From an uncultured archaeon (GTDB taxonomy: Archaea; Asgardarchaeota; Lokiarchaeia; Sigyniarchaeales; SOKP01), in NCBI GenBank assembly GCA_964525635.1, contig CAZGJX010000044.1:1-32431 (forward strand): a stretch of DNA of 32,431 nt. The letters run 5' to 3'. Under the pieces are notes generated by a model, which did not search any database, was not told where the DNA came from, and saw only the letters and a program-made list of their open reading frames with translations. Shown here in pieces: positions 7,506 through 17,111 of this stretch (the stretch's first letter is position 1; every line of letters starts with the position of its first letter). A program made the position numbers and the translations under genes.

Positions 7506-8054
7506 CTATGTTAACATACTCAGTTTATCTTTGAATATCTCTTTCTTGAGCTCTTTTATATGTTCTTTTAACTCTTTCTCTGTCATCTTAAGGGTATTTT
7601 TTATGGTTCCTGATTGCTCGATCTCTTTTTTAATTATAGGAGCAAATTTTTGCATTTGAAGGATCATAACTCCAATATTGACATCATTATCGCACAATAG
7701 AATTATAAGAATTTCTCTCTTTTCTTCATGATTAATTTTAATATTAGTTATAGATTTTACAAATAATTGCATATTGTTGTAGATAATAGTTGCTCTGTCT
7801 AAATAATCAGCTTCGAAAAAATCCTGCCCTTGTCTTGCCACACCATACATCGCAGCACCAATTGAACTGAGATCCCAGTAATTAAGTTTTCTGTCGAATC
7901 GAGAATCTACTGCGATAATTTTGGCATCCTGATCAACTGCAATAATCCCGTAGATATATCCTTTCCTCGTGAGTTTTCCATAATTATCTCGAATCTCATC
8001 AAGAATAGTACTTATTTTATTTTTATATAATACTTTAGGTATTTGTATTACCAT
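7506..8054 (-). CDS. Roadblock/LC7 (MglB-like) protein
   Basis: GIIAVDQDAKIIA..LSSIGAAMYGVA..LIILLCDNDVNIGVM pattern; directly upstream of the MglA-like GTPase. Confidence 0.75.
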   Translation of the reverse strand: MVIQIPKVLYKNKISTILDEIRDNYGKLTRKGYIYGIIAVDQDAKIIAVDSRFDRKLNYWDLSSIGAAMYGVARQGQDFFEADYLDRATIIYNNMQLFVKSITNIKINHEEKREILIILLCDNDVNIGVMILQMQKFAPIIKKEIEQSGTIKNTLKMTEKELKEHIKELKKEIFKDKLSMLT

Positions 8055-8161
8055 GACTTTATCTCCAAATAAAATTATTTTAAAGTGAAATATTGTCGGG
8101 AGTATTTAAAGAAAAAAAAGAAAATGCACATAAAAAGATAGATATATATTCAAAGATATTA

Positions 8162-9088
8162 CTATATAATTTTTATTTTGGATCTTTTGGTGAAATGAAC
8201 TTCTTTCTCATTATTTCTATCATTGTTTTTTATCATTACGTTGGAAATTTTTATTAATATATCATTTTCAATTGATTTAAGAACCTCTATAGCCTTTAGA
8301 TCCCAAACTAAGACAATTATATTTCCAGTATCATCTATAAGTTGGAACTTTAGTAAAAAAGACTTCTCTCCATTTTTCTTATTAAATTCTTTAAAATCAT
8401 CTATTTTTACATATCCACTCACAGAATCAATAAATCCTTCTTTATTGAATAAATCTTTAATATGTGTACTATTCACATGGGAAAGGGAATATCCATTTCC
8501 ATTACCTAATTCAATTTTTTGCAATTGTTTCTTTATTTTATCATCAATATCACTTGGTGCTAAAATTAGTGTTCCTATTTTCCCCATATGGATTTCAAGT
8601 CCCCCATTCAACCCTTTTTTTGAATATCCATTAATAACTCTTACAATTTCACCTTTTTGAAAGAATTCAGTATCTATAATTTTAACATGTTCACCCCATA
8701 CTACAATTTTAATTGATCCTGAAGTATCAGCTAGTATAAATGATCCAACAAGTCCAGGAGTATTATCTTTTCTTATAAAAGATTTTATTTGAAAAATATT
8801 GGTAATCTTACCAAGAATCACTATGTTGCTCATCCCCTCTTGAAGGTCACTTAGAGGCATAGTAAACTCATTATAATCAATCTCTTTTTCAATTTCAGAG
8901 TAGAGATCAGGATCAATATCAGGAGATTGAATTTTAAGACCCTTTTCTTTTGCAATAAGAAATAATGCTCCTTGTTCTGTTATAAATCCATGAAATTCTG
9001 ACTTCTTTCTCTTAATTTCATTATTTAATTCTTCCTCTGAGAAACCCTTGTTGATTAAACACTGATAAACTTCTTCAATATCACTCAT
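8162..9088 (-). CDS. rpa: Replication protein A-like ssDNA-binding protein (two OB folds)
   Basis: N-terminal GFITEQGALFLIAKEKG; OB motifs FIRKDNTPGLVGSFILADTSGSIKIVVW and LIDDTGNIIVLVW. Probable start ATG 9088 overlaps the upstream stop. Confidence 0.85.
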   Translation of the reverse strand: MSDIEEVYQCLINKGFSEEELNNEIKRKKSEFHGFITEQGALFLIAKEKGLKIQSPDIDPDLYSEIEKEIDYNEFTMPLSDLQEGMSNIVILGKITNIFQIKSFIRKDNTPGLVGSFILADTSGSIKIVVWGEHVKIIDTEFFQKGEIVRVINGYSKKGLNGGLEIHMGKIGTLILAPSDIDDKIKKQLQKIELGNGNGYSLSHVNSTHIKDLFNKEGFIDSVSGYVKIDDFKEFNKKNGEKSFLLKFQLIDDTGNIIVLVWDLKAIEVLKSIENDILIKISNVMIKNNDRNNEKEVHFTKRSKIKII

Positions 9089-9689
9089 TTTTAGATAAAA
9101 CGCCTTTTTCAATTAAAATATTTTTTGTGCGGTAAAAAGCATAAGCAGAGCAATTTGTTATCGCCCGAATATTTGTATTCATCAATTTTCTTGAATTAAA
9201 GCTATCCTTAAGATCTGTTATAAAGACCAGTATAGCTAATTGAGTCGAAATTTGAGGCCATAAATGAGTTGTATTAAAAAATTTATGAAGTATCTTTAGG
9301 TTTTTTCTTGCTCTCTTATAATCAAAGACAGGAGCTAATCTATGAAGCTTATGAAGATAAATTTTAACTTTTGTGTATATATTATTTTTTTTTAGATCCC
9401 ATTTGATTTTACACCGTTTTAAAAACATCTGAAACGATTTTAAATCTCTTAGAAATTTTTCAATAATATTTTTAGTAATATTATAATGGGCAACCGTATT
9501 AGTAGAGATCAGCTCATATTGCCTTTCAGATAAGCAAGGTACGATTTCAGTCTCGTAATTCACATATGTAATTGAATACTTTCGAAGTGTATAATCTAAA
9601 ATGCTCTGTTTGATTTTTTTATAGTTTATTGAGCATTCAATCATCTGAGATTCCTTATCTTTAATGGCCAATGTAAATACATTCGTCAT
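9081..9689 (-). CDS. Hypothetical basic protein; C-terminus weakly resembles a TFB/cyclin-fold repeat
   Basis: PQISTQLAILVFI...LMNTNIRAITNCSAYAF pattern; coupled to rpa; promoter motif at 9746-9761. Confidence 0.55.
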   Translation of the reverse strand: MTNVFTLAIKDKESQMIECSINYKKIKQSILDYTLRKYSITYVNYETEIVPCLSERQYELISTNTVAHYNITKNIIEKFLRDLKSFQMFLKRCKIKWDLKKNNIYTKVKIYLHKLHRLAPVFDYKRARKNLKILHKFFNTTHLWPQISTQLAILVFITDLKDSFNSRKLMNTNIRAITNCSAYAFYRTKNILIEKGVLSKNE

Positions 9690-9764
9690 ACTCTTTTTCT
9701 CTCTTTTATTAAGATTGTATATTTAGAAAAGAAAAAGTGTGGTTATATTTAAAGAAAAAAATCT

Positions 9765-9883
9765 GGGTAGGTACAAATGTTAGTGATAAAAATGCATAAA
9801 TTGATTTATTTTAGAATATTTCTCCTAAAATTATAATTTAATAAAAGAATATATTCTTCCATCACTGAATTTTGTAGGCACCC
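9765..9883 (+). mobile_element. MITE copy A (119 bp, 23-bp imperfect TIRs)
   Basis: Near-identical to 12547-12665 and to the reverse complement of 15507-15626. Ends GGGTAGGTACAAATGTTAGTGAT...ATCACTGAATTTTGTAGGCACCC. Confidence 0.9.
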
Positions 9884-9889
9884 TTTTTT

Positions 9890-10527
9890 GGGTAAGTACA
9901 AAATTCAGTGATGGTAAATTAAAATTAATTTTAGGTCTTAAGTTTCCATTAAAGAAACTTAGAAAATTCAAATAATTGTTATTTTAAATATTTTGTATCA
10001 ACTTTAACGTCATAATCAGGATGTATACAAAGTCCTTTAAACTCTATTGCTTTAGGTTCAAATAAAAACCTTACAGGAACATTACAGTCTAATCCTTTTT
10101 GTATTTCCATAGCAGTAGAAAGTCCAGCATAACCTTTTTTGTTATATACAAGAAGTAAATCAGCATACTCAATTAACCTTTTAAAAATCATGTGATTCTT
10201 AGCTTTTTCAATTAGCTCAACACTTTTATTATATACATCATCACTTGGTTCAAAAACTTTTTTATATCTATCATTTATCAACTTCTTAGATAATGCTGTC
10301 ATCTTTTGTTTAAATCTCATTGAACCACTAATTATTATTGTTTCAATTTTATTATCACAACTCAACTGGCTCACCTTGTCTTTGATTTTCAGATTTTTAT
10401 AATATAATTTATTTAACCTAAAATATATGAAGAGTCTTCTTATTTTTTAATATTATATTCATCACAATTTAAATTATCATAAAATCTTGTTAATTTTTAG
10501 TTTTATCACTAAATTTTGTACAGAACC
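9890..10527. mobile_element. Non-autonomous gene-carrying element 1 (same TIR family)
   Basis: TIRs at 9890-9912 and 10505-10527 (19/23 match). The composite 9765-10527 is flanked by AAAAATCT (9757-9764 and 10528-10535). Confidence 0.8.
9979..10374 (-). CDS. Nucleoside 2-deoxyribosyltransferase-like (Rossmann) small protein, cargo gene
   Basis: IIISGSMRF...IEYADLLLVYNKKGYAGLSTAMEI motif. Confidence 0.6.
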   Translation of the reverse strand: MSQLSCDNKIETIIISGSMRFKQKMTALSKKLINDRYKKVFEPSDDVYNKSVELIEKAKNHMIFKRLIEYADLLLVYNKKGYAGLSTAMEIQKGLDCNVPVRFLFEPKAIEFKGLCIHPDYDVKVDTKYLK

Positions 10528-10535
10528 AAAAATCT

Positions 10536-11276
10536 GGGTAGATGCAGAACCTATTGATGAATTATTTTTTATATATAAATTATATGATTAAATCAGCTTT
10601 ATTGATATGATTAAAATTTTATTATCATAAATGCTATGAAGATAAAGAAGCATAAATTTAAAAATTCAAAAAAAACAACAAGTTAAATGAAAAAAGAAGA
10701 AAAAACTCGTGATCGTCCATATATACCTGATTATGGTATTGAAGAATCAGATAATGGATTATTAAGTTGGAATTTTGTACAAAATGAGATGAAGGATGCA
10801 AAAAATTATTGGTTAAGTACTACAAGATTAGATGGTCGTCCCCATGCAATTCCTATATGGGGATCATGGATTAATGATAATTTTTATTTTGGGGGAGGTT
10901 CAGGAACACAAAATCGTAGAAATTTAGCTGAAAATCCCCATATTGTTGTTCACTCAGAAAGTGGGATTAAGGTTGTTATAATTGAAGGGAAGGCCTCAAT
11001 TGAGAAAAATGAGGATTTAATTAAGGAGATCAAGAAGGATTATATGAGAAAATACAATTTAGATCATCCTCCTCCATTTTATAGGGTAAGCAAAACCAAA
11101 GTTCTTTGTTGGAATATGGATGATTATGCTGGAACCCCAACACGATGGAAATTTATAGAACTAAAAGAATGAAAAGATATGGAAAAGTTTTGATATGGAT
11201 AATTGGGATCCCAAACAATAATAATAAATTTATTAGCAATTATCTATTTTTTTATCACTGACCTTTGGAACTACCC
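10536..11276. mobile_element. Non-autonomous gene-carrying element 2 (degenerate TIRs)
   Basis: TIRs at 10536-10558 and 11254-11276 (15/23 match); AAAAATCT on both sides (10528-10535, 11277-11284). Confidence 0.75.
10687..11172 (+). CDS. Pyridoxamine 5'-phosphate oxidase-like split-barrel flavin/F420-binding protein, cargo gene
   Basis: NYWLSTTRLDGRPHAIPIWG...RNLAENPHIVVH...VVIIEGKA motif. Confidence 0.85.
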   Translation: MKKEEKTRDRPYIPDYGIEESDNGLLSWNFVQNEMKDAKNYWLSTTRLDGRPHAIPIWGSWINDNFYFGGGSGTQNRRNLAENPHIVVHSESGIKVVIIEGKASIEKNEDLIKEIKKDYMRKYNLDHPPPFYRVSKTKVLCWNMDDYAGTPTRWKFIELKE

Positions 11277-11384
11277 AAAAATCTCTGATTAATTATTCAA
11301 ATATAATAATTCACCTACAAAATTTAATAAAATTAAGATAAATATTTGGAGTCAAATATTATATAATTTTATCAGAAACTTTAT

Positions 11385-12482
11385 TTAATAATCAATCATA
11401 TCGAGGGTTTTTTGAATAACTTTTGGTCTATCTTTCTCATATTCAAATAATTTTAGACATTTATAAAAGCTCTCAACTAAAAATTTTGTATTTTTCTCAA
11501 CTCTCTCTTTATTAAGATGATGATCTTTGCAAAGTAAATGAAATATTCTTGTTGTATTAGGTGGATTCCAATAAAGGGCATCAAAATTACTTAAAACTTC
11601 AGGTAAAAGAAAGATTTTTCTGATTTCCATTATTAGATTGTGATTCAGAGCTGAAAAGTCATAATTTTCTTTCTCACCTGTTATTATTGATTCTATATTA
11701 TTGTATTTCTTAATGAATCTCAGAGCAGTTTTTGGACCAATCCCTTTTATTCCTTGAAAATAGTCTGTCTTTAAGAGTATTGCCAAATCAATTAATTGAA
11801 ATTGATCTATACCTATGATTTTTAGACTCTCTCTTAAATCTATATATTGTGGTTCTATCTTAATGTATGTCCATCTTCCATGTTCTTTTCTTTTCAGTGA
11901 TTTCGAAAGGTTCTGTATTAATCGAGGACAACCAAATAGAAGGGAATCAAAATCTTGAGAATTTGAAAAGTGAGTAATGTGTTCCTTTACTAATTGAGCA
12001 GATTGTGCTTCTGCTGAGACAGGTGAATTAACTATAGGCACCCCAAGAGCATGTAATAATTGCTTTGATTCCTTTATTACGTTTATCCACATATATTCTT
12101 TCGATAAAGCTATTTTCCTAGCTAGCTCTTTATTGTCTTTTTCTATTGCTTGCTTATATCGTTTTTGAGCGAAACGAAAGTCATTAAGTTGGTTTTTTGT
12201 TTCTACACGTTTTAGTTGAGAGACTTTCCCATCAAAGCAAAATATAGGAAGTATATTCTTACTATAAAGAAATTTTATACGATAAAGTATTCCATAAAGA
12301 TGAGAAAATACTCTTTGTGTTCGATCAAGAAATAAATCCGTCTCATATATAGTGGTGTTCTTATGGGAAAAATTCAGAAAACTCATGATAATATTGGGGG
12401 CATCTATTGCTATGATTCTCCCCTTTAACTCTGAAAAGTCAATTTTTTGCCTCTGAATTATTGAATTTAATTTTACTCCCAT
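11385..12482 (-). CDS. fen: Flap endonuclease 1 / XPG-family nuclease (divergent paralog)
   Basis: MGVKL, IAIDA, FCFDG, AEAQ, SQDFDSLLFG, TDY, H3TH GIGPKTA, C-terminal PIP-like QKTLD. Confidence 0.85.
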   Translation of the reverse strand: MGVKLNSIIQRQKIDFSELKGRIIAIDAPNIIMSFLNFSHKNTTIYETDLFLDRTQRVFSHLYGILYRIKFLYSKNILPIFCFDGKVSQLKRVETKNQLNDFRFAQKRYKQAIEKDNKELARKIALSKEYMWINVIKESKQLLHALGVPIVNSPVSAEAQSAQLVKEHITHFSNSQDFDSLLFGCPRLIQNLSKSLKRKEHGRWTYIKIEPQYIDLRESLKIIGIDQFQLIDLAILLKTDYFQGIKGIGPKTALRFIKKYNNIESIITGEKENYDFSALNHNLIMEIRKIFLLPEVLSNFDALYWNPPNTTRIFHLLCKDHHLNKERVEKNTKFLVESFYKCLKLFEYEKDRPKVIQKTLDMIDY

Positions 12483-12546
12483 TTGAACTATATTTGATGT
12501 TAAACAATATAAAGAAAAAATAAGTGTAATTTAACTCTTGGATTTT

Positions 12547-12665
12547 GGGTAGGTACAAATGTTAGTGATAAAAATGCATAAATTGATTTATTTTAGAATA
12601 TTTCTCCTAAAATTATAATTTAATAAAAGAATATATTTTTCCATCACTGAATTTTGTACGCACCC
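12547..12665 (+). mobile_element. MITE copy B (119 bp) with 8-bp TSD TGGATTTT
   Basis: TSD at 12539-12546 and 12666-12673; TIRs match 18/23. Confidence 0.92.
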
Positions 12666-12867
12666 TGGATTTTTTATTTAAATATATACACTAATATTAT
12701 AACTAAGAATTAAAAAAAGAAAATAGATTTTTTCGTTATTAAATACCATTGATCAAAACCCTGGACTTGTAACCCTTTTTTTCTAATTTTTTAATTTCTA
12801 ATTTTCTCCTTCTTTTTTTTTTCCTTTAAATAATCTCATCTGAAGTGATTAGTAATTAAAAAAAACA

Positions 12868-14149
12868 TTGGTGAATAAAATTTCAGATTTAAGCCAAATA
12901 AAAGGAATAAACTCAAGACATATTAAACTTTTAGAAGAAAATGGTATATCTACCGCTGAAATGTTAGCGATGTCTTCTCAAAATAGTGTTGCAGACATCA
13001 ATGGGCTTGGAGATAAGACTGCAAAAAAACTTATTTGGAGTGCCCGAGATGCCTTAGGAATGACTGATTTTACTTCTGCTTCTGAGATGGATGACAATGT
13101 AGAATATTTCACTACAGGGTCTTCTGAACTAAATCGCATTTTAGGAGGAGGATTTCAAACAGGAAAATTAACTGAAGTGTATGGGCCCTTCAAATCAGGA
13201 AAAACTAATCTTTCTCATACACTTGCTGTAACTGTTCAATTACCAAAAGGAAGGGGAGGATTAGAAGGAGCTACAGCGTATATAGATACTGAGAATACAT
13301 TTTCAAAAAAGAAGATTGAACGTATCTCTAAACGATTTTCCCTTAATCCCAAAGATGTCTTAGGAAAGATCCATCATGCGAGAATTTATAGTTCAGATCA
13401 TCAAGATCAAATGATACTCCAAGCGGAAAAATTATGCAAAACTCGAAATGTAAGGATGATCATCGTTGATAGCTTAATGGCTCTACTTAGAGCTGAATAT
13501 GTAGGAATCGGAATGCTTGCAAGAAGACAAAGTGTACTCAATAGTATGATTCACGGATTATCCAGAATTGCTGAAACATATAACGCAGCAGTTTTATTAA
13601 CGAATCAAGTTGCTACAAAAATGATGGGAATGTTCTCTGCCGATGATGCTATAGGAGGAAATAGTGATGCCACAGTTCATGGATCACTTCCAAATTGTAG
13701 CACATGGCTGTCATTTCCGTGTAATGTTTAAAACAAAAGGATTCTCATCAAATAAATCCTTAAAGAGACGAGCTGTTATTGTAGATGCTCCTGATTTACC
13801 TCCAGAGGAGTGTGAATTCTATATCACAAATGCAGGAGTTGCAGATTCGGAAGAAGTTAATATACCAACTACTCAGGAACTATATATAAAATTGGAAACT
13901 TTATATGAAGAAAGTGATGATTCAATAGGAGAAAATGATACAAAAAGTGGAAATATAACTAAAAAAAACCTATCACTAACAGATATAAAGGGAATTGGGA
14001 AGGGAACAGTGGTAAATCTTAACCAAGAAGGAATAAACAATGTAGAAGATCTATTAAAAGTAGATCCAAAAGAATTATCCTCAAAAGTTAGTGGTGTATC
14101 TGAGTCCAAGATAATTGAGTGGCAAAAAATCGCTACAACTAAAATTTAA
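12868..14149 (+). CDS. radA: RadA/Rad51-family recombinase, two exons (12868-13662, 13694-14149), ~416 aa, with an extra C-terminal HhH domain
   Basis: N-terminal HhH, Walker A GPFKSGKT, YIDTENTF, Walker B IIVDS, TNQV. Removing 13663-13693 joins the two track ORFs as IGGN|IVAHG. Confidence 0.88.
13663..13693 (+). other. Putative 31-nt bulge-helix-bulge mRNA intron in radA
   Basis: Central helix GGAA(13657-60)/UUCC(13688-91), 3-nt bulges AUA(13661-63) and AAA(13692-94), flanking stems. Canonical cut sites restore the frame. Confidence 0.82.
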
Positions 14150-14182
14150 ATTTCTTTTTCTTCTTTTTTTTTATTTTGTATT
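14150..14182 (+). terminator. Oligo-T tract after radA, likely archaeal terminator
   Basis: T-rich run directly after the stop codon. Confidence 0.5.
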
Positions 14183-14266
14183 TAATCTCTTGATATCCCA
14201 ATCACATTATTTAAAATAAATAGAGATATAACTGGTAAAATAAGTATGGAAAAACTAGGGATTTTA

Positions 14267-14467
14267 TTACTCTTTTTTATGAAAAGCATCTAAAAAGGCC
14301 ATTTTTTCTTCAATAGCTAAAATATCCTCATCATCAAATTCGTCGCAATCCTGCTTTTCAAATTCTAATCTACATTTAAAGCAATTAAAGGACTCATTAT
14401 ATTCATATATTTCGAACCCGCCACAACGAGGGCAGTGATACTTTTCTTTTGGCATATTAAGTGACAT
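14267..14467 (-). CDS. Small Zn-ribbon protein
   Basis: CPRCGG...CFKC with an acidic C-terminal helix. Confidence 0.7.
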   Translation of the reverse strand: MSLNMPKEKYHCPRCGGFEIYEYNESFNCFKCRLEFEKQDCDEFDDEDILAIEEKMAFLDAFHKKE

Positions 14468-14604
14468 CTATACTATACAATATAATCAATAAATGGTAAA
14501 TAACCTATTTAAATCTCTTTATTACATAACAAATATGATATTTTTTCTTTATAAATATGTATTGGATAAAAGTATTTAAACTAAAATATAGGTGTTCTAT
14601 AGAG

Positions 14605-15198
14605 ATGGGAAATGATGATATCTGGTTTGTTCCAAAGAAAAAGCAGTCCAGCGGAAAATCAACCTTACTCATACTTTTTGCAATTAGTATAATAATCATA
14701 ATCCTTATCCCTTTTTTCAGTGATAATTTCCAACAAGTAACGGGAGATATCTTAGATACAGTCTTTAATGTACTTAAACAACTTAGTCTTTTTCTTGGAA
14801 TTATTTTAATAATAGTTGGATTTGTAAAGGCAATGAGTGAGGATGGAAGGGCGATGGGTGTAGTATTATTAATTATAGGCTTCATCTTGATATTATTATG
14901 GTTAGATCCAATCCATTTTATAAATGAAATAATGACGAAATTCGGAGGGTATGAAGATAAATATAGAAGAGAGGAGACTGATACTTTTGGTACTATAAGA
15001 ACTTTAGTTTTGGCAATTGCTCTGATAATGTTTGCAGTAGGATTATTTATTCTAAAAAATCACAAAAAAATAGGAATAACCCTTTTAATTATTTCAATAC
15101 TCCTTATGCTCATGGGATGGTTAGATCCATTTGGAATTCTAAATTTTATAGAATCTTTTTTTGATGATTCCTCTGGTTTTCCTTATGGATACACTTAA
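14605..15198 (+). CDS. Multi-pass membrane protein with two repeated 2-TM units ending WLDP
   Basis: About 5 hydrophobic segments and an internal repeat. The track start 14557 abuts the TATA motif, so ATG 14605 is preferred. Confidence 0.7.
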   Translation: MGNDDIWFVPKKKQSSGKSTLLILFAISIIIIILIPFFSDNFQQVTGDILDTVFNVLKQLSLFLGIILIIVGFVKAMSEDGRAMGVVLLIIGFILILLWLDPIHFINEIMTKFGGYEDKYRREETDTFGTIRTLVLAIALIMFAVGLFILKNHKKIGITLLIISILLMLMGWLDPFGILNFIESFFDDSSGFPYGYT

Positions 15199-15241
15199 TT
15201 TTTTTATTCTTTTTTCTTTGACCTATAAAAAATAGGAGTAA

Positions 15242-15463
15242 TTAGTACATACCGAAATATCTTAGTCCAGTATCAAATCCACATAAAATTACAAGAAAAA
15301 TAGATGGAAGTAAGACAAAAGCCATTTTAGATTTATATTTATTAGAAAGTACCATTAATCCTAGCATACCAATAATAATCCCAAAGACACCTATAACGGA
15401 GCCTATTGCAATTAAAAAGTCAAAACCTTCTTCAAATGTCTCATAATAATCGTTTAGAACCAT
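15242..15463 (-). CDS. Small 2-TM membrane protein (pilin/CedA1-like architecture)
   Basis: 73 aa, two hydrophobic helices with a basic loop, own promoter motif at 15488-15503. Confidence 0.65.
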   Translation of the reverse strand: MVLNDYYETFEEGFDFLIAIGSVIGVFGIIIGMLGLMVLSNKYKSKMAFVLLPSIFLVILCGFDTGLRYFGMY

Positions 15464-15506
15464 ATTGCATCATCTATAATTCTGATATATTTAAAAGAAA
15501 AAATAG

Positions 15507-15626
15507 GGGTGCGTACAAAATTCAGTGATGGGAAGAATATATTCTTTTATTAAATTATAATTTTAGGAGAAATATTCTAAAATAAATCAATTTATGCATT
15601 TTTATCACTAACATTTGTACCTACCC
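15507..15626 (-). mobile_element. MITE copy C (120 bp, inverted) with 8-bp TSD AAAAATAG
   Basis: TSD at 15499-15506 and 15627-15634; reverse complement of copies A and B. Confidence 0.92.
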
Positions 15627-15739
15627 AAAAATAGAAGAAATAATTAAAGAAAAGACAGGTTTTTATTTCAACAGTATAATACTCCCATCCAATATATTTC
15701 CCTAGACAATTTATCTCTATAATGAAATGAAAATTATGG

Positions 15740-15755
15740 TTTTTTTCTTTAAATA
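15740..15755 (+). promoter_or_regulatory. Representative of the shared promoter motif TTTTTTC-TTTAWATA
   Basis: The same motif occurs in gene orientation at 6759(-), 8103(-), 9746(-), 12506(-), 12813(+), 14541(+), 15488(-), 22750(+) and 29882(-). Confidence 0.7.
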
Positions 15756-15802
15756 GGGGTATTTGATTTTACTGTAAAATATAACTTTTACTATATTCGA
15801 CG

Positions 15803-16132
15803 ATGAAAAAAACAAAAGAACTTGGACTCTGTCCTAATTGCAATTGTTCAATTTTTATACATAAAACTTCAAATTATAAACGATATGCGAAATGTGAGAT
15901 ATGCGGGAATTCTTATCCCCTCCCAAAGCGGGGCAAAATTCACAACTCCGCTCTCATATGTCCTTTAAGGAATTATCCCATTTTAATTATTGAAAATAAT
16001 GGTAAAAAAGCATATTTTTGGGCAGATAGTCCTTGCTTTGATTGCGTGAACTATGACAATTGCAAACCAGTTCAAGAATTAATTAATGAATTCATGGAGA
16101 TGGAAGTGTATGAGTTTAAAAAACCAGATTAA
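15803..16132 (+). CDS. Cys-rich Zn-ribbon protein resembling the C-terminal Zn fingers of topoisomerase IA
   Basis: CPNC..CEICGNSYPLPKRGKI..CP..CFDC. Confidence 0.65.
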   Translation: MKKTKELGLCPNCNCSIFIHKTSNYKRYAKCEICGNSYPLPKRGKIHNSALICPLRNYPILIIENNGKKAYFWADSPCFDCVNYDNCKPVQELINEFMEMEVYEFKKPD

Positions 16133-17111
16133 AATTAAGAATAAAAAAGTATCTATTATTATACTTTTATATTTTCTTATAGGAATAACTGTGATTCCAA
16201 TTACGATAAGTATCCAAAAAGATTATTATCTTAGTGCATTGAAAGATGTACCTGAATCTAGATTAAATACACAAGGTTTAGGCGAAGGACTAATTCATGA
16301 TAAAGTACATACGTTTCATAAAAATCAGAGAGACATTATTCTAAGTCCTTATCTATTGAATCGCTCTTTTTATCATATCAAATTTGCTATTGTAACTGAT
16401 TCTCATGAGTGCCATATGAATATTACCCTCCTTGATCCAAATGGATTAATATATTATATTTTTAAATCAGAAGTACCAATGCGCTTTAATGCCTATTATA
16501 CCGTACCTTATGGAGTAACTATTAATGGAAATCACACAATAATCTTTACAGAAACAGAAGGTCCAAATTTAAATATTCATATAAGCATATTTCAAGGGGA
16601 TGAAATGTCTGATATTCCTTTCCCAGTACAACCTAAGGAAAATTATAATTGTTCTTTATATCTTGAATCTGATACAATGTATAAATTTTTCATAAGACGA
16701 GTAAATCCTATTGCTTATGGACTGGATGATACCTTACAGATTAACTTAAATCTAACTGCACCTAATGGTATTATTTTCAATATTTTTAATAGCAAGCCAA
16801 TTACAGCATTCAACTCACCAATAGATTTTCCCTTCGGTACTGCTATGGAAGGATTTTATACTATGGATTTCAGGAATTATCAGGCCCAACCAAACATAAA
16901 TATATTAGTACATATAGATAGGATAAGAAAAATTTCAACAGAATTGAATTCAAGCGATATAGGAAACGAGACAAACAATAATACCAGTAGCATAAAAGCA
17001 TTACCCTATATTCCTCCTGCTGCGTTTTATGGTGGTGCTGGAATAATGGGAATGGTTGCAATTATTGCCCTCGTAATTGGATATACCTATAAGAAAAAAT
17101 TTAATAATTAA
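16110..17111 (+). CDS. Membrane-anchored extracellular protein with two repeated beta domains
   Basis: N-terminal TM; repeats NITLLDPNGLIYYIF / NLNLTAPNGIIFNIF; NxT/S sequons; C-terminal TM+KKK. Confidence 0.75.
   Translation: MSLKNQIKIKNKKVSIIILLYFLIGITVIPITISIQKDYYLSALKDVPESRLNTQGLGEGLIHDKVHTFHKNQRDIILSPYLLNRSFYHIKFAIVTDSHECHMNITLLDPNGLIYYIFKSEVPMRFNAYYTVPYGVTINGNHTIIFTETEGPNLNIHISIFQGDEMSDIPFPVQPKENYNCSLYLESDTMYKFFIRRVNPIAYGLDDTLQINLNLTAPNGIIFNIFNSKPITAFNSPIDFPFGTAMEGFYTMDFRNYQAQPNINILVHIDRIRKISTELNSSDIGNETNNNTSSIKALPYIPPAAFYGGAGIMGMVAIIALVIGYTYKKKFNN

Follow-up and report, generated by a model that had tools for sequence, protein, structure and literature searches.

What places short repeats beside TATA-type octamers in this Asgard archaeal DNA, and how far does the arrangement extend? 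The window, meaning the whole stretch analysed, comprises positions 1-32,431 of the forward strand of contig CAZGJX010000044.1 (assembly GCA_964525635.1), from an uncultured Asgard archaeon (Lokiarchaeia; Sigyniarchaeales; SOKP01). The original prediction was that a MITE family inserts here at a fixed distance upstream of TATA boxes, guided by TBP/TFB-bound DNA. The positions given for its three sites were all confirmed on the sequence, and the features at these sites are as follows (genes at or near the sites were called by crude ORF scans).

9081-9689, minus strand: host gene of site 1, start 56 nt downstream of the octamer
9746-9753, minus strand: site 1 TATA-type octamer, TATTTAAA on the plus strand and TTTAAATA on the minus strand
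9757-9764: AAAAATCT, first of three copies, TATA-proximal, the duplicated target of site 1
9765-9883, plus strand: MITE copy 1, 119 bp, 98% identity with copy 2
9884-9889: TTTTTT where MITE copy 1 adjoins cargo element X, in place of the expected 8-bp duplication
9890-10527, plus strand: cargo element X, 638 bp, bounded by detected TIRs
9979-10374, minus strand: 131-aa ORF of cargo element X (ORF scan)
10528-10535: AAAAATCT, second copy, common to elements X and Y
10536-11276, plus strand: cargo element Y, 741 bp, TIRs decayed
10687-11172, plus strand: 161-aa ORF of cargo element Y, pyridoxamine-5'-phosphate-oxidase-like (Pfam PF01243, E 1.4e-8)
11277-11284: AAAAATCT, third copy, distal
12539-12546: distal TSD TGGATTTT of site 2
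12547-12665, plus strand: MITE copy 2, 119 bp, with the IRL-like GGGTGCG end on the TATA side
12666-12684, plus strand: site 2 target, comprising TSD TGGATTTT (12666-12673), spacer tta and TTTAAATA (12677-12684)
15242-15463, minus strand: ORF downstream of site 3, start 24 nt past the octamer (leaderless geometry)
15488-15506, minus strand: site 3 target, comprising TATTTAAA (15488-15495), spacer aga and TSD AAAAATAG (15499-15506)
15507-15626, minus strand: MITE copy 3, 120 bp, in the opposite orientation to copies 1 and 2
15627-15634: distal TSD AAAAATAG of site 3

Site 2 lies in the divergent fen/radA intergenic region, with the radA start 183 nt downstream. At site 1 the spacer gaa separates the octamer from AAAAATCT, and it is the IRR-like GGGTAGG end of the MITE that adjoins the TATA. 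This site had been taken for a simple MITE insertion, a reading that must be abandoned: the far side of the MITE is TTTTTT (9884-9889) and not a second AAAAATCT. Site 1 is a tandem of three elements, the MITE followed by X and Y, with AAAAATCT present three times.

The 119-bp repeats are MITE copies of a transposon family in Loki-type Asgard archaea (Promethearchaeota), which ranges from the 119-bp MITE through gene-carrying derivatives of 0.6-0.9 kb to an autonomous IS of 1.63 kb. The genome holds 11 full MITE copies without coding sequence, ten of them 97-100% identical and the other 90%; they have 23-nt TIRs, and nine of the 11 complete copies have perfect or near-perfect 8-bp TSDs. A transposase-coding element with the same ends, the autonomous partner that the original prediction called for, was found at G000:C73:11821-15758, and intact 1.63-kb copies with perfect TSDs occur in other genomes (L024, L027, L029, L031 and L036). 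The IS carries its own conserved BRE/TATA and so does not borrow the TATA of the host.

The DDE transposase encoded by the IS is about 470 aa long with an N-terminal zinc ribbon, and intact homologues were found; D190, D249 and E373, invariant in 13 sequences, form the predicted triad. An AF2 model (pLDDT 81) has its best PDB match in the ISCth4 IS256-family transposase (6XG8/6XGX; Foldseek E 4.6e-11, TM 0.44-0.57). The modelled catalytic fold is IS256/Mutator-like, a helical insertion separating the second D from the E. HMM scores against IS families reach only 17-50 bits, set against curated cut-offs of 125-240: the best IS256 score is 37.5 bits, under the cut-off of 150, the best ISH6 match (E 2.7e-8) falls under its cut-off of 240, and the NCBIfam models for ISLre2 and ISKra4 gave no match at E<=1. 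The family resembles IS6/IS26 in its TIRs starting GG, 8-bp duplications, arrays of abutting elements and weak HMM similarity around the first catalytic D. Membership was nevertheless rejected, as the scores of 35-50 bits stay below the cut-off of 125, the Asgard protein is twice as long (about 470 aa versus about 230-250 aa) and the fold is IS256-like with an insertion domain. Judged by family models, the transposase is unclassified and outside IS6, ISLre2 and ISKra4.

Genome-wide, the central claim, a MITE family with 8-bp TSDs at a single-nucleotide-fixed distance from a TATA-type octamer, was upheld. A TATA-like octamer lies 3 nt from the 8-bp duplication at 14/14 insertion loci of the window's genome; ten are exactly TATTTAAA, and the remaining four are CATTTAAA, TTTTTAAA, TATAAAAA and TATATATT. 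The frequency of TATTTAAA is about 7e-4 per intergenic position and strand, and against this background ten exact octamers in 14 at one offset (binomial P 2.6e-26) rule out chance. The same spacing is obeyed at 17 sites in related genomes and eight in metagenomes, about 39 sites in total, and the distance from the octamer to the element tip is exactly 11 bp.

Position weights from 31 sites define an asymmetric 15-nt target, TATTTAAA-KAA-AAAA, with 15 conserved positions. As integrated, the target reads 5'-TATTTAAA-KAA-AAAANNNN-3', 19 bp overall, of which the last 8 nt are duplicated. Variant octamers used across the family (TATATAAA, TATTAAAA, TATAAAAA, CATTTAAA and TATTTATT) are all TATA-box-like. 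The A-run is near-invariant among targets and is carried by only 4.7% of TATTTAAA sites. Occupancy is 10/145 for TATTTAAA plus A-run, compared with 0/79 for the reversed octamer, which was never used as a target, and 0/83 for TATATAAA.

Could such regularity arise from random or merely AT-preferring insertion, followed by selection for copies just upstream of promoters? Insertion inside coding sequence is rare (1/14 loci, the C126 copy, which interrupts a 533-aa ORF) although half of the TATTTAAA octamers are intragenic, so purifying selection clearly shapes the surviving set. Selection cannot, however, make a single-nucleotide offset, a fixed octamer polarity or a repeated identical 8-mer, and the copies, at 98-100% identity, are young. 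We regard this account as highly improbable, and it is refuted by a 3-nt spacing that holds at about 39 independent sites.

It might also be supposed that the octamer belongs to an element with longer true ends, or that the repeats are segmental duplications of promoter regions, given that the 19 nt TATTTAAAGAAAAAAATCT are identical at site 1 (C44) and at C107:5863. This shared 19-mer departs from the consensus at only three free positions, though, and the sequence past the octamer is unrelated between sites. The octamer is one-sided, a variable 8-bp duplication separates it from the TIR, and it stands beside either end of the MITE (7:5). In a genome of the same genus (L077, G002:C286), an empty site, orthologous but not identical (72% identity), keeps the site 1 promoter block TATATTTAAAGAAAA with its octamer and without the element. 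The orientation data and this empty site refute both versions, to which we assign a negligible probability.

Read towards the host gene, the target is a T-tract followed by TTTAAATA, and in these genomes the combination appears from its sequence context to be a real promoter type. Gene starts are concentrated at 23 or about 47 nt past it, and ATG-ORFs lie at 23-26 or 46-52 nt from 13/29 unoccupied strict-motif sites, against 24% for any TTTAAATA. Three unoccupied targets lie within the window:

8103-8121, minus strand: target-type promoter, TATTTAAA-gaa-AAAAAAGA on the plus strand (inverted repeat I4), 48 nt before the ATG of the gene at 7506-8054 (minus strand)
12814-12832, plus strand: target-type promoter, T8-tcc-TTTAAATA, 35 nt before the radA TTG at 12868
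15737-15755, plus strand: perfect target, TGGTTTTT-ttc-TTTAAATA, with the ATG at 15803 lying 47 nt downstream and the T-tract and TATA conserved in four species of the genus

An inserted element is thus normally found immediately upstream of a promoter that stays intact. The claim that the promoter survives insertion is borne out: the 11 nt beside the TATA are unchanged and the element is usually upstream of the host gene's promoter. A host gene directed away from the element is present within 16-132 nt at 8/12 foreign IS loci and within 24-98 nt at 6/14 loci of the window's genome. Occupied sites are at promoters more often than unoccupied motif sites, an excess that could reflect TBP occupancy as well as selection.

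How, then, is the target recognised? The original prediction invoked host factors: the transposase would dock on TBP or TBP-TFB at the TATA box and integrate a fixed distance upstream, the A-run being a mere local active-site preference or the mark of one promoter class. Spacing exact to the nucleotide from a motif that matches the archaeal TATA consensus in full agrees with such tethering, as do the TATA-like character of all accepted variants (including an AT island in 59%-GC DNA), the coincidence of the 15 conserved nt with a promoter module kept among species, the true promoter-upstream position of most sites and a precedent in the same transposase superfamily (PMC3942029). Against it, one exact octamer with fixed polarity recurs at 22 of about 39 sites, though TBP binding is nearly symmetric and promoter octamers in these genomes are generally diverse; the A-run is required yet is not general at promoters; one insertion is intragenic and another (the C79 copy) sits between convergent genes; and the cuts, made at 3 and 11 nt from the TATA, would coincide with TFB contacts on the DNA, judging from known TBP-TFB-DNA structures. 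That TBP, or a TBP-TFB paralogue complex marking the T-tract promoter class, physically guides the transposase is thus possible but rather doubtful.

The narrow choice of octamer, the A-tract requirement and the intragenic and convergent-intergenic sites favour direct DNA readout over TBP/TFB guidance. We think it somewhat probable that the transposase or transpososome reads promoter-module DNA directly, needing no TBP/TFB tether. The transpososome would recognise the sequence or shape of the 15-bp module, with the DNA-binding part of the transposase held at a fixed distance from the active site. Full elements place the IRL (the transposase-5' end) beside the TATA in 19/19 autonomous copies; the loss of orientation control in the MITE would be explained by its two tips, which both start GGGT.

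Several observations run against direct readout, the excess of occupied sites at promoters among them. A footprint spanning the BRE position and the TATA would cover about as many nucleotides as the 15 that are conserved, the A/T-swap tolerance of the TATA-like variants fits a minor-groove reader such as TBP, and the GC-rich locus L036 keeps the AT octamer and not the A-run.

Promoter-seeking integration is known in bacteria (TnGBS, ISLre2, ISKra4) and in eukaryotes (Ty3, Ty1, Tf1), and full-text literature searches found no archaeal case. The comparison with TnGBS/ISLre2 and Ty3 made at the outset proved apt, the transposase having a predicted Mutator/IS256-like fold. The bacterial elements insert upstream of the sigmaA -35 box at a somewhat flexible distance of 15-17 bp, and contact with RNA polymerase/sigmaA has been proposed for TnGBS (PMC3942029). 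Like them, the Asgard family combines a DDE transposase of the Mutator/IS256 superfamily with integration at a constant short distance ahead of a core promoter element that is left intact, and the orientation of full elements relative to the promoter is conserved, which in the bacterial case is ascribed to asymmetry of the two inverted repeats. It differs in its Asgard hosts, in a landmark made of a TATA-type octamer and a T/A-tract instead of a sigmaA box, in its exact spacing (11 bp) and in the IRL, not the IRR, facing the promoter. IS256 (ISCth4), the closest in structure, shares the 8-bp duplications and the DDE triad, in which a long helical insertion again separates the second D from the E, but inserts essentially at random. 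For archaeal ISH6, whose duplicated 8-mer is AT-rich, the authors speculated on a promoter bias; in contrast to the Asgard family, a fixed landmark beyond the duplication has not been reported for it. Yeast Ty3 (TFIIIB-tethered), Ty1 and S. pombe Tf1 likewise occupy a defined position beside a transcription initiation site, a safe haven. These, in contrast, are eukaryotic retrotransposon integrases whose targeting is proven to act via protein-protein contacts with little DNA sequence requirement, whereas the sequence requirement of the Asgard family is strong.

The family gives the promoter-seeking transposons of bacteria and yeast a counterpart in archaea, one that enters a simple 19-bp target with a precision of a single nucleotide. 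One transposase, a short target and the 119-bp donor would make up a manageable in vitro system in which promoter DNA can be compared with the TBP/TFB complex, and exact-distance insertion from a 15-bp motif may serve as a programmable-landing tool. Were TBP/TFB guidance true, a prokaryotic transposon would for the first time be seen tethered to basal transcription machinery of the eukaryotic kind, and this in the archaea most closely related to eukaryotes; PIC-tethered integration of the Ty3/TFIIIB type might then have had a forerunner here. The family also marks the T-tract-plus-TATA promoter class in genomes without mapped promoters.

With all determinants on the TATA side and in the duplicated 8-mer, repeat hits on one site are possible and build tandem arrays such as the three AAAAATCT copies at site 1. 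The cargo cassettes therein show a route for stacking single genes in front of promoters. Elements X and Y have one copy each in the genome, and the 131-aa ORF of X matched no family in Pfam and NCBIfam scans. The TTTTTT junction beside X may have arisen either from a composite move of the pair or from subsequent rearrangement.

When the ends of the mini-element (MITE) were located by a fuzzy scan of the whole assembly from which the window derives (4.45 Mb, 26.8% GC), 11 full copies were found together with other elements sharing the same ends. The family is real and recently active. It had originally been predicted, from three sites, that insertion takes place at a fixed distance from a TATA box, and the genome-wide comparison bears this out: at 14 of 14 loci an all-A/T or nearly all-A/T octamer lies exactly 3 nt from the 8-mer adjacent to the element tip. 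This octamer is exactly TATTTAAA at ten loci, and CATTTAAA, TTTTTAAA, TATAAAAA and TATATATT at the other four. The genome contains 3071 occurrences of TATTTAAA, of which 1515 fall in crude intergenic DNA, and the binomial probability of ten exact octamers in 14 by chance is 2.6e-26. The octamer adjoins either end of the MITE (7:5), and is therefore not part of the element. Other genomes and metagenomes add approximately 25 independent sites of the same geometry, and position weights from 31 sites give the consensus TATTTAAA-KAA-AAAA and then four nucleotides that vary.

Intact 1.63-kb autonomous copies (IS) with the same ends are present in 14 of 61 related genomes, as well as in GTDB species genomes and metagenome contigs; a pattern search of metagenomes returned 24 matches, eight of them false positives inside a conserved gene. 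Perfect 8-bp duplications flank several of these foreign copies (at loci L024, L027, L029, L031 and L036). The L036 site lies on a contig of 59% GC. It reads GAAA-TATTTATT-cgc-GAATGGTC and its duplication is perfect; the AT octamer is retained there and the A-run is not.

In the window, the three MITE copies (9765-9883, 12547-12665 and 15507-15626) all show the predicted order of TATTTAAA octamer (read towards the element), 3 nt, 8-bp target and inverted repeat, with the octamer on one side only of each copy. The elements are 119-120 bp long, with imperfect 23-nt ends, GGGTAGGTACAAATGTTAGTGAT and GGGTGCGTACAAAATTCAGTGAT. The features surrounding copies 1 and 2 are as follows.

9890-10527: TIR-bounded cargo element X, carrying a 131-aa ORF
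10528-10535 and 11277-11284: further copies of AAAAATCT at site 1
10536-11276: TIR-bounded cargo element Y, whose ORF is PNPOx-like (Pfam E 1.4e-8)
11385-13731: divergent genes for FEN1 flap endonuclease (minus strand) and RadA (plus strand), with MITE copy 2 in between

At site 1 the geometry of octamer and duplication stands, and the simple MITE insertion originally described does not: MITE copy 1 and element X are joined by TTTTTT (9884-9889) where the second AAAAATCT would be expected. This could have arisen if the two transposed together as a composite, or through a later rearrangement. The three copies of AAAAATCT fit repeated insertion at one TATA-proximal position. Within this tandem the outermost element shows the greatest end decay, and the youngest member is the MITE. 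Elements X and Y each occur only once in the genome. The first start codon in the RadA frame is a TTG at 12868. An Rfam scan of positions 9000-16500 detected no RNA family.

In the direction leading away from the element, the motif consists of a T-tract, TTC or TTA, and TTTAAATA, in that order, and several observations bear on whether this is a promoter. One unoccupied motif, which precedes the ATG at 15803 by 47 nt, is kept in four species of the genus within otherwise diverged DNA, and the site 1 promoter block is kept without any element in a same-genus genome (G002), providing an empty-site control; no empty sites were recovered for window sites 2 and 3, where the intergenic DNA is too diverged. 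Among unoccupied strict-motif sites, 13 of 29 are followed within 130 nt by an ATG-initiated ORF, with distances concentrated at 23-26 and 46-52 nt; the proportion is 24% when any TTTAAATA is considered and 21% for the opposite direction. Of the foreign IS loci, 8 of 12 have a host gene pointing away from the element, 16-132 nt beyond the octamer; the corresponding figure for this genome is 6 of 14 loci, at 24-98 nt. Including the motif before the ATG at 15803, three promoters of the target type (T-tract, TTC/TCC, TTTAAATA) lie unoccupied in the window, 35-48 nt before gene starts:

8103-8121: unoccupied target-type promoter
12814-12832: unoccupied target-type promoter
15737-15755: unoccupied target-type promoter, the one before the ATG at 15803

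With the three occupied ones, this makes six such sites in the window. On the strength of motif conservation, gene starts and host-gene direction, the element usually ends up 11 bp upstream of a promoter that it leaves intact, as predicted, with three exceptions: a family copy on contig C126 sits inside a gene, whose 533-aa frame is restored by deleting 126 bp; the copy on C79 lies between convergent genes; and at L036 the IS separates the octamer from the sole nearby gene. Octamer profiles by position upstream of crude ORF starts showed only a weak TATA signal, and no promoter consensus was obtained from tRNA upstream regions, there being only 32 tRNAs, many in one array. Two dense tRNA arrays on C54 (19098-26196) contain 21 of the 32 ARAGORN tRNAs of the whole assembly; they may belong to a mobile element or virus, or be a sign of missed intron-containing tRNAs elsewhere.

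The original prediction had transposition guided by TBP/TFB-bound DNA. Such tethering would suit the octamer variants accepted across the family, which are all TATA-like, and the conserved 15 nt, which match the conserved host promoter module. However, a run of A (at least six in the next positions 2-8) follows only 4.7% of TATTTAAA sites, yet is found at nearly all targets. In this genome 10 of 145 TATTTAAA sites with the A-run are occupied, against 0 of 79 with the reversed octamer and 0 of 83 with TATATAAA (Fisher P ~0.015 each). The octamers of promoters in general are diverse, some insertions lie outside promoters, and the IS's own promoter, conserved in all copies, has a purine-rich BRE and TTTATAGG or TTTAAAGG ~33 nt before the ATG. 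Tethering appears the less likely reading but is a serious alternative. The evidence points to a strong sequence-specific component in targeting; its simplest form would be that the transposase reads the DNA directly, and towards this the site comparisons lead us to lean.

The autonomous partner sought by the original prediction lies at C73:11821-15758, shares the MITE's ends and is the sole transposase copy in this genome, its gene being split by a group II intron.

L001:2913-5224 (locus on C73), minus strand: complete group II intron with a 490-aa RT/maturase ORF

The intron encodes a reverse transcriptase (Pfam RVT_1, E 3e-38) and matches Rfam RF00029 (L001:2913-2989) and RF02012 (L001:5052-5160). 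Compared with intact homologues, it breaks the transposase precisely at the first catalytic D-E, between exon boundaries ...GYDEI and HMRISGK..., and its splicing would be predicted to restore the frame. Related RT genes are also found on C36 and C58.

Only 55 relatives of the transposase were detected among 1.84 billion representative proteins, the intact ones being ~470 aa long, and a 13-sequence alignment contains invariant, predicted catalytic residues D190, D249 and E373. Models of the IS6, IS66, ISL3, IS256 and ISH6 families gave sub-threshold matches only, the ISKra4 and ISLre2 models gave none, and a sequence search of the PDB found no match. The AlphaFold model (pLDDT 81) is structurally closest to the IS256-family ISCth4 transposase (Foldseek E 4.6e-11). 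Database homologues, from MAGs of Lokiarchaeota, Sigynarchaeota and Promethearchaeota, are named 'hypothetical protein' or 'transposase'. Taken together, these results assign the protein to the Mutator/IS256-like assemblage, in a lineage that is unclassified. IS6 membership, initially suspected because the TIRs start with GG and the duplication is 8 bp, was rejected on HMM scores far under the cut-off, a protein twice as long and the IS256-like fold. Short contigs bearing this IS in MAGs labelled Spirochaetota, Bacteroidaceae and Patescibacteria (L032, L034 and L038) are most likely binning errors, not transfer.

The closest known systems are bacterial promoter-targeting Mutator-like elements, whose insertions lie 15-17 bp upstream of the -35 box, in a conserved orientation, and for which contact with the initiation complex is proposed and unproven (PMC3942029). 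Archaeal ISH6 duplicates an AT-rich 8-mer, with promoter preference only speculated (PMC3942029), and our literature search found no archaeal TATA-linked targeting. The present family targets promoter-proximal positions in a new, archaeal form. Its autonomous copies are also oriented: the transposase-5' end (IRL) adjoins the octamer in all 19 with a visible TATA-side flank (two-sided binomial 3e-5 for the first 16; Fisher P 0.008 against the 7:5 of the MITE). Because of this orientation we considered promoter capture, with a host TATA driving the transposase; it was rejected, as every IS copy has its own conserved promoter. The IRL tip begins GAT or GGT and the opposite end (IRR) GGGTAG, whereas both MITE tips begin GGGT. 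This fits a control of orientation through the asymmetry of the two ends, the explanation proposed for TnGBS/ISLre2 (PMC3942029), although selection may also be responsible.

Approximately half of the autonomous copies have mismatching flanks, and copies of the family with two such flanks are listed here.

G000 (this genome), C107:5863-5981
G000, C73
L025, L028, L033, L018 and L061

As the two flanks differ and each resembles the target of another site, recombination between copies, and hence genome rearrangement, is suggested. Elements of the family also often abut one another, with tips 8-10 nt apart:

L065:255-1054
L020/L041:1147-1156
G000, C164:6289-6299
L071:1704-1713

In the L065 tandem the successive spacers, AAAGATTT then AAAAATTG, are unlike each other, a difference not expected if one site had simply been used again.
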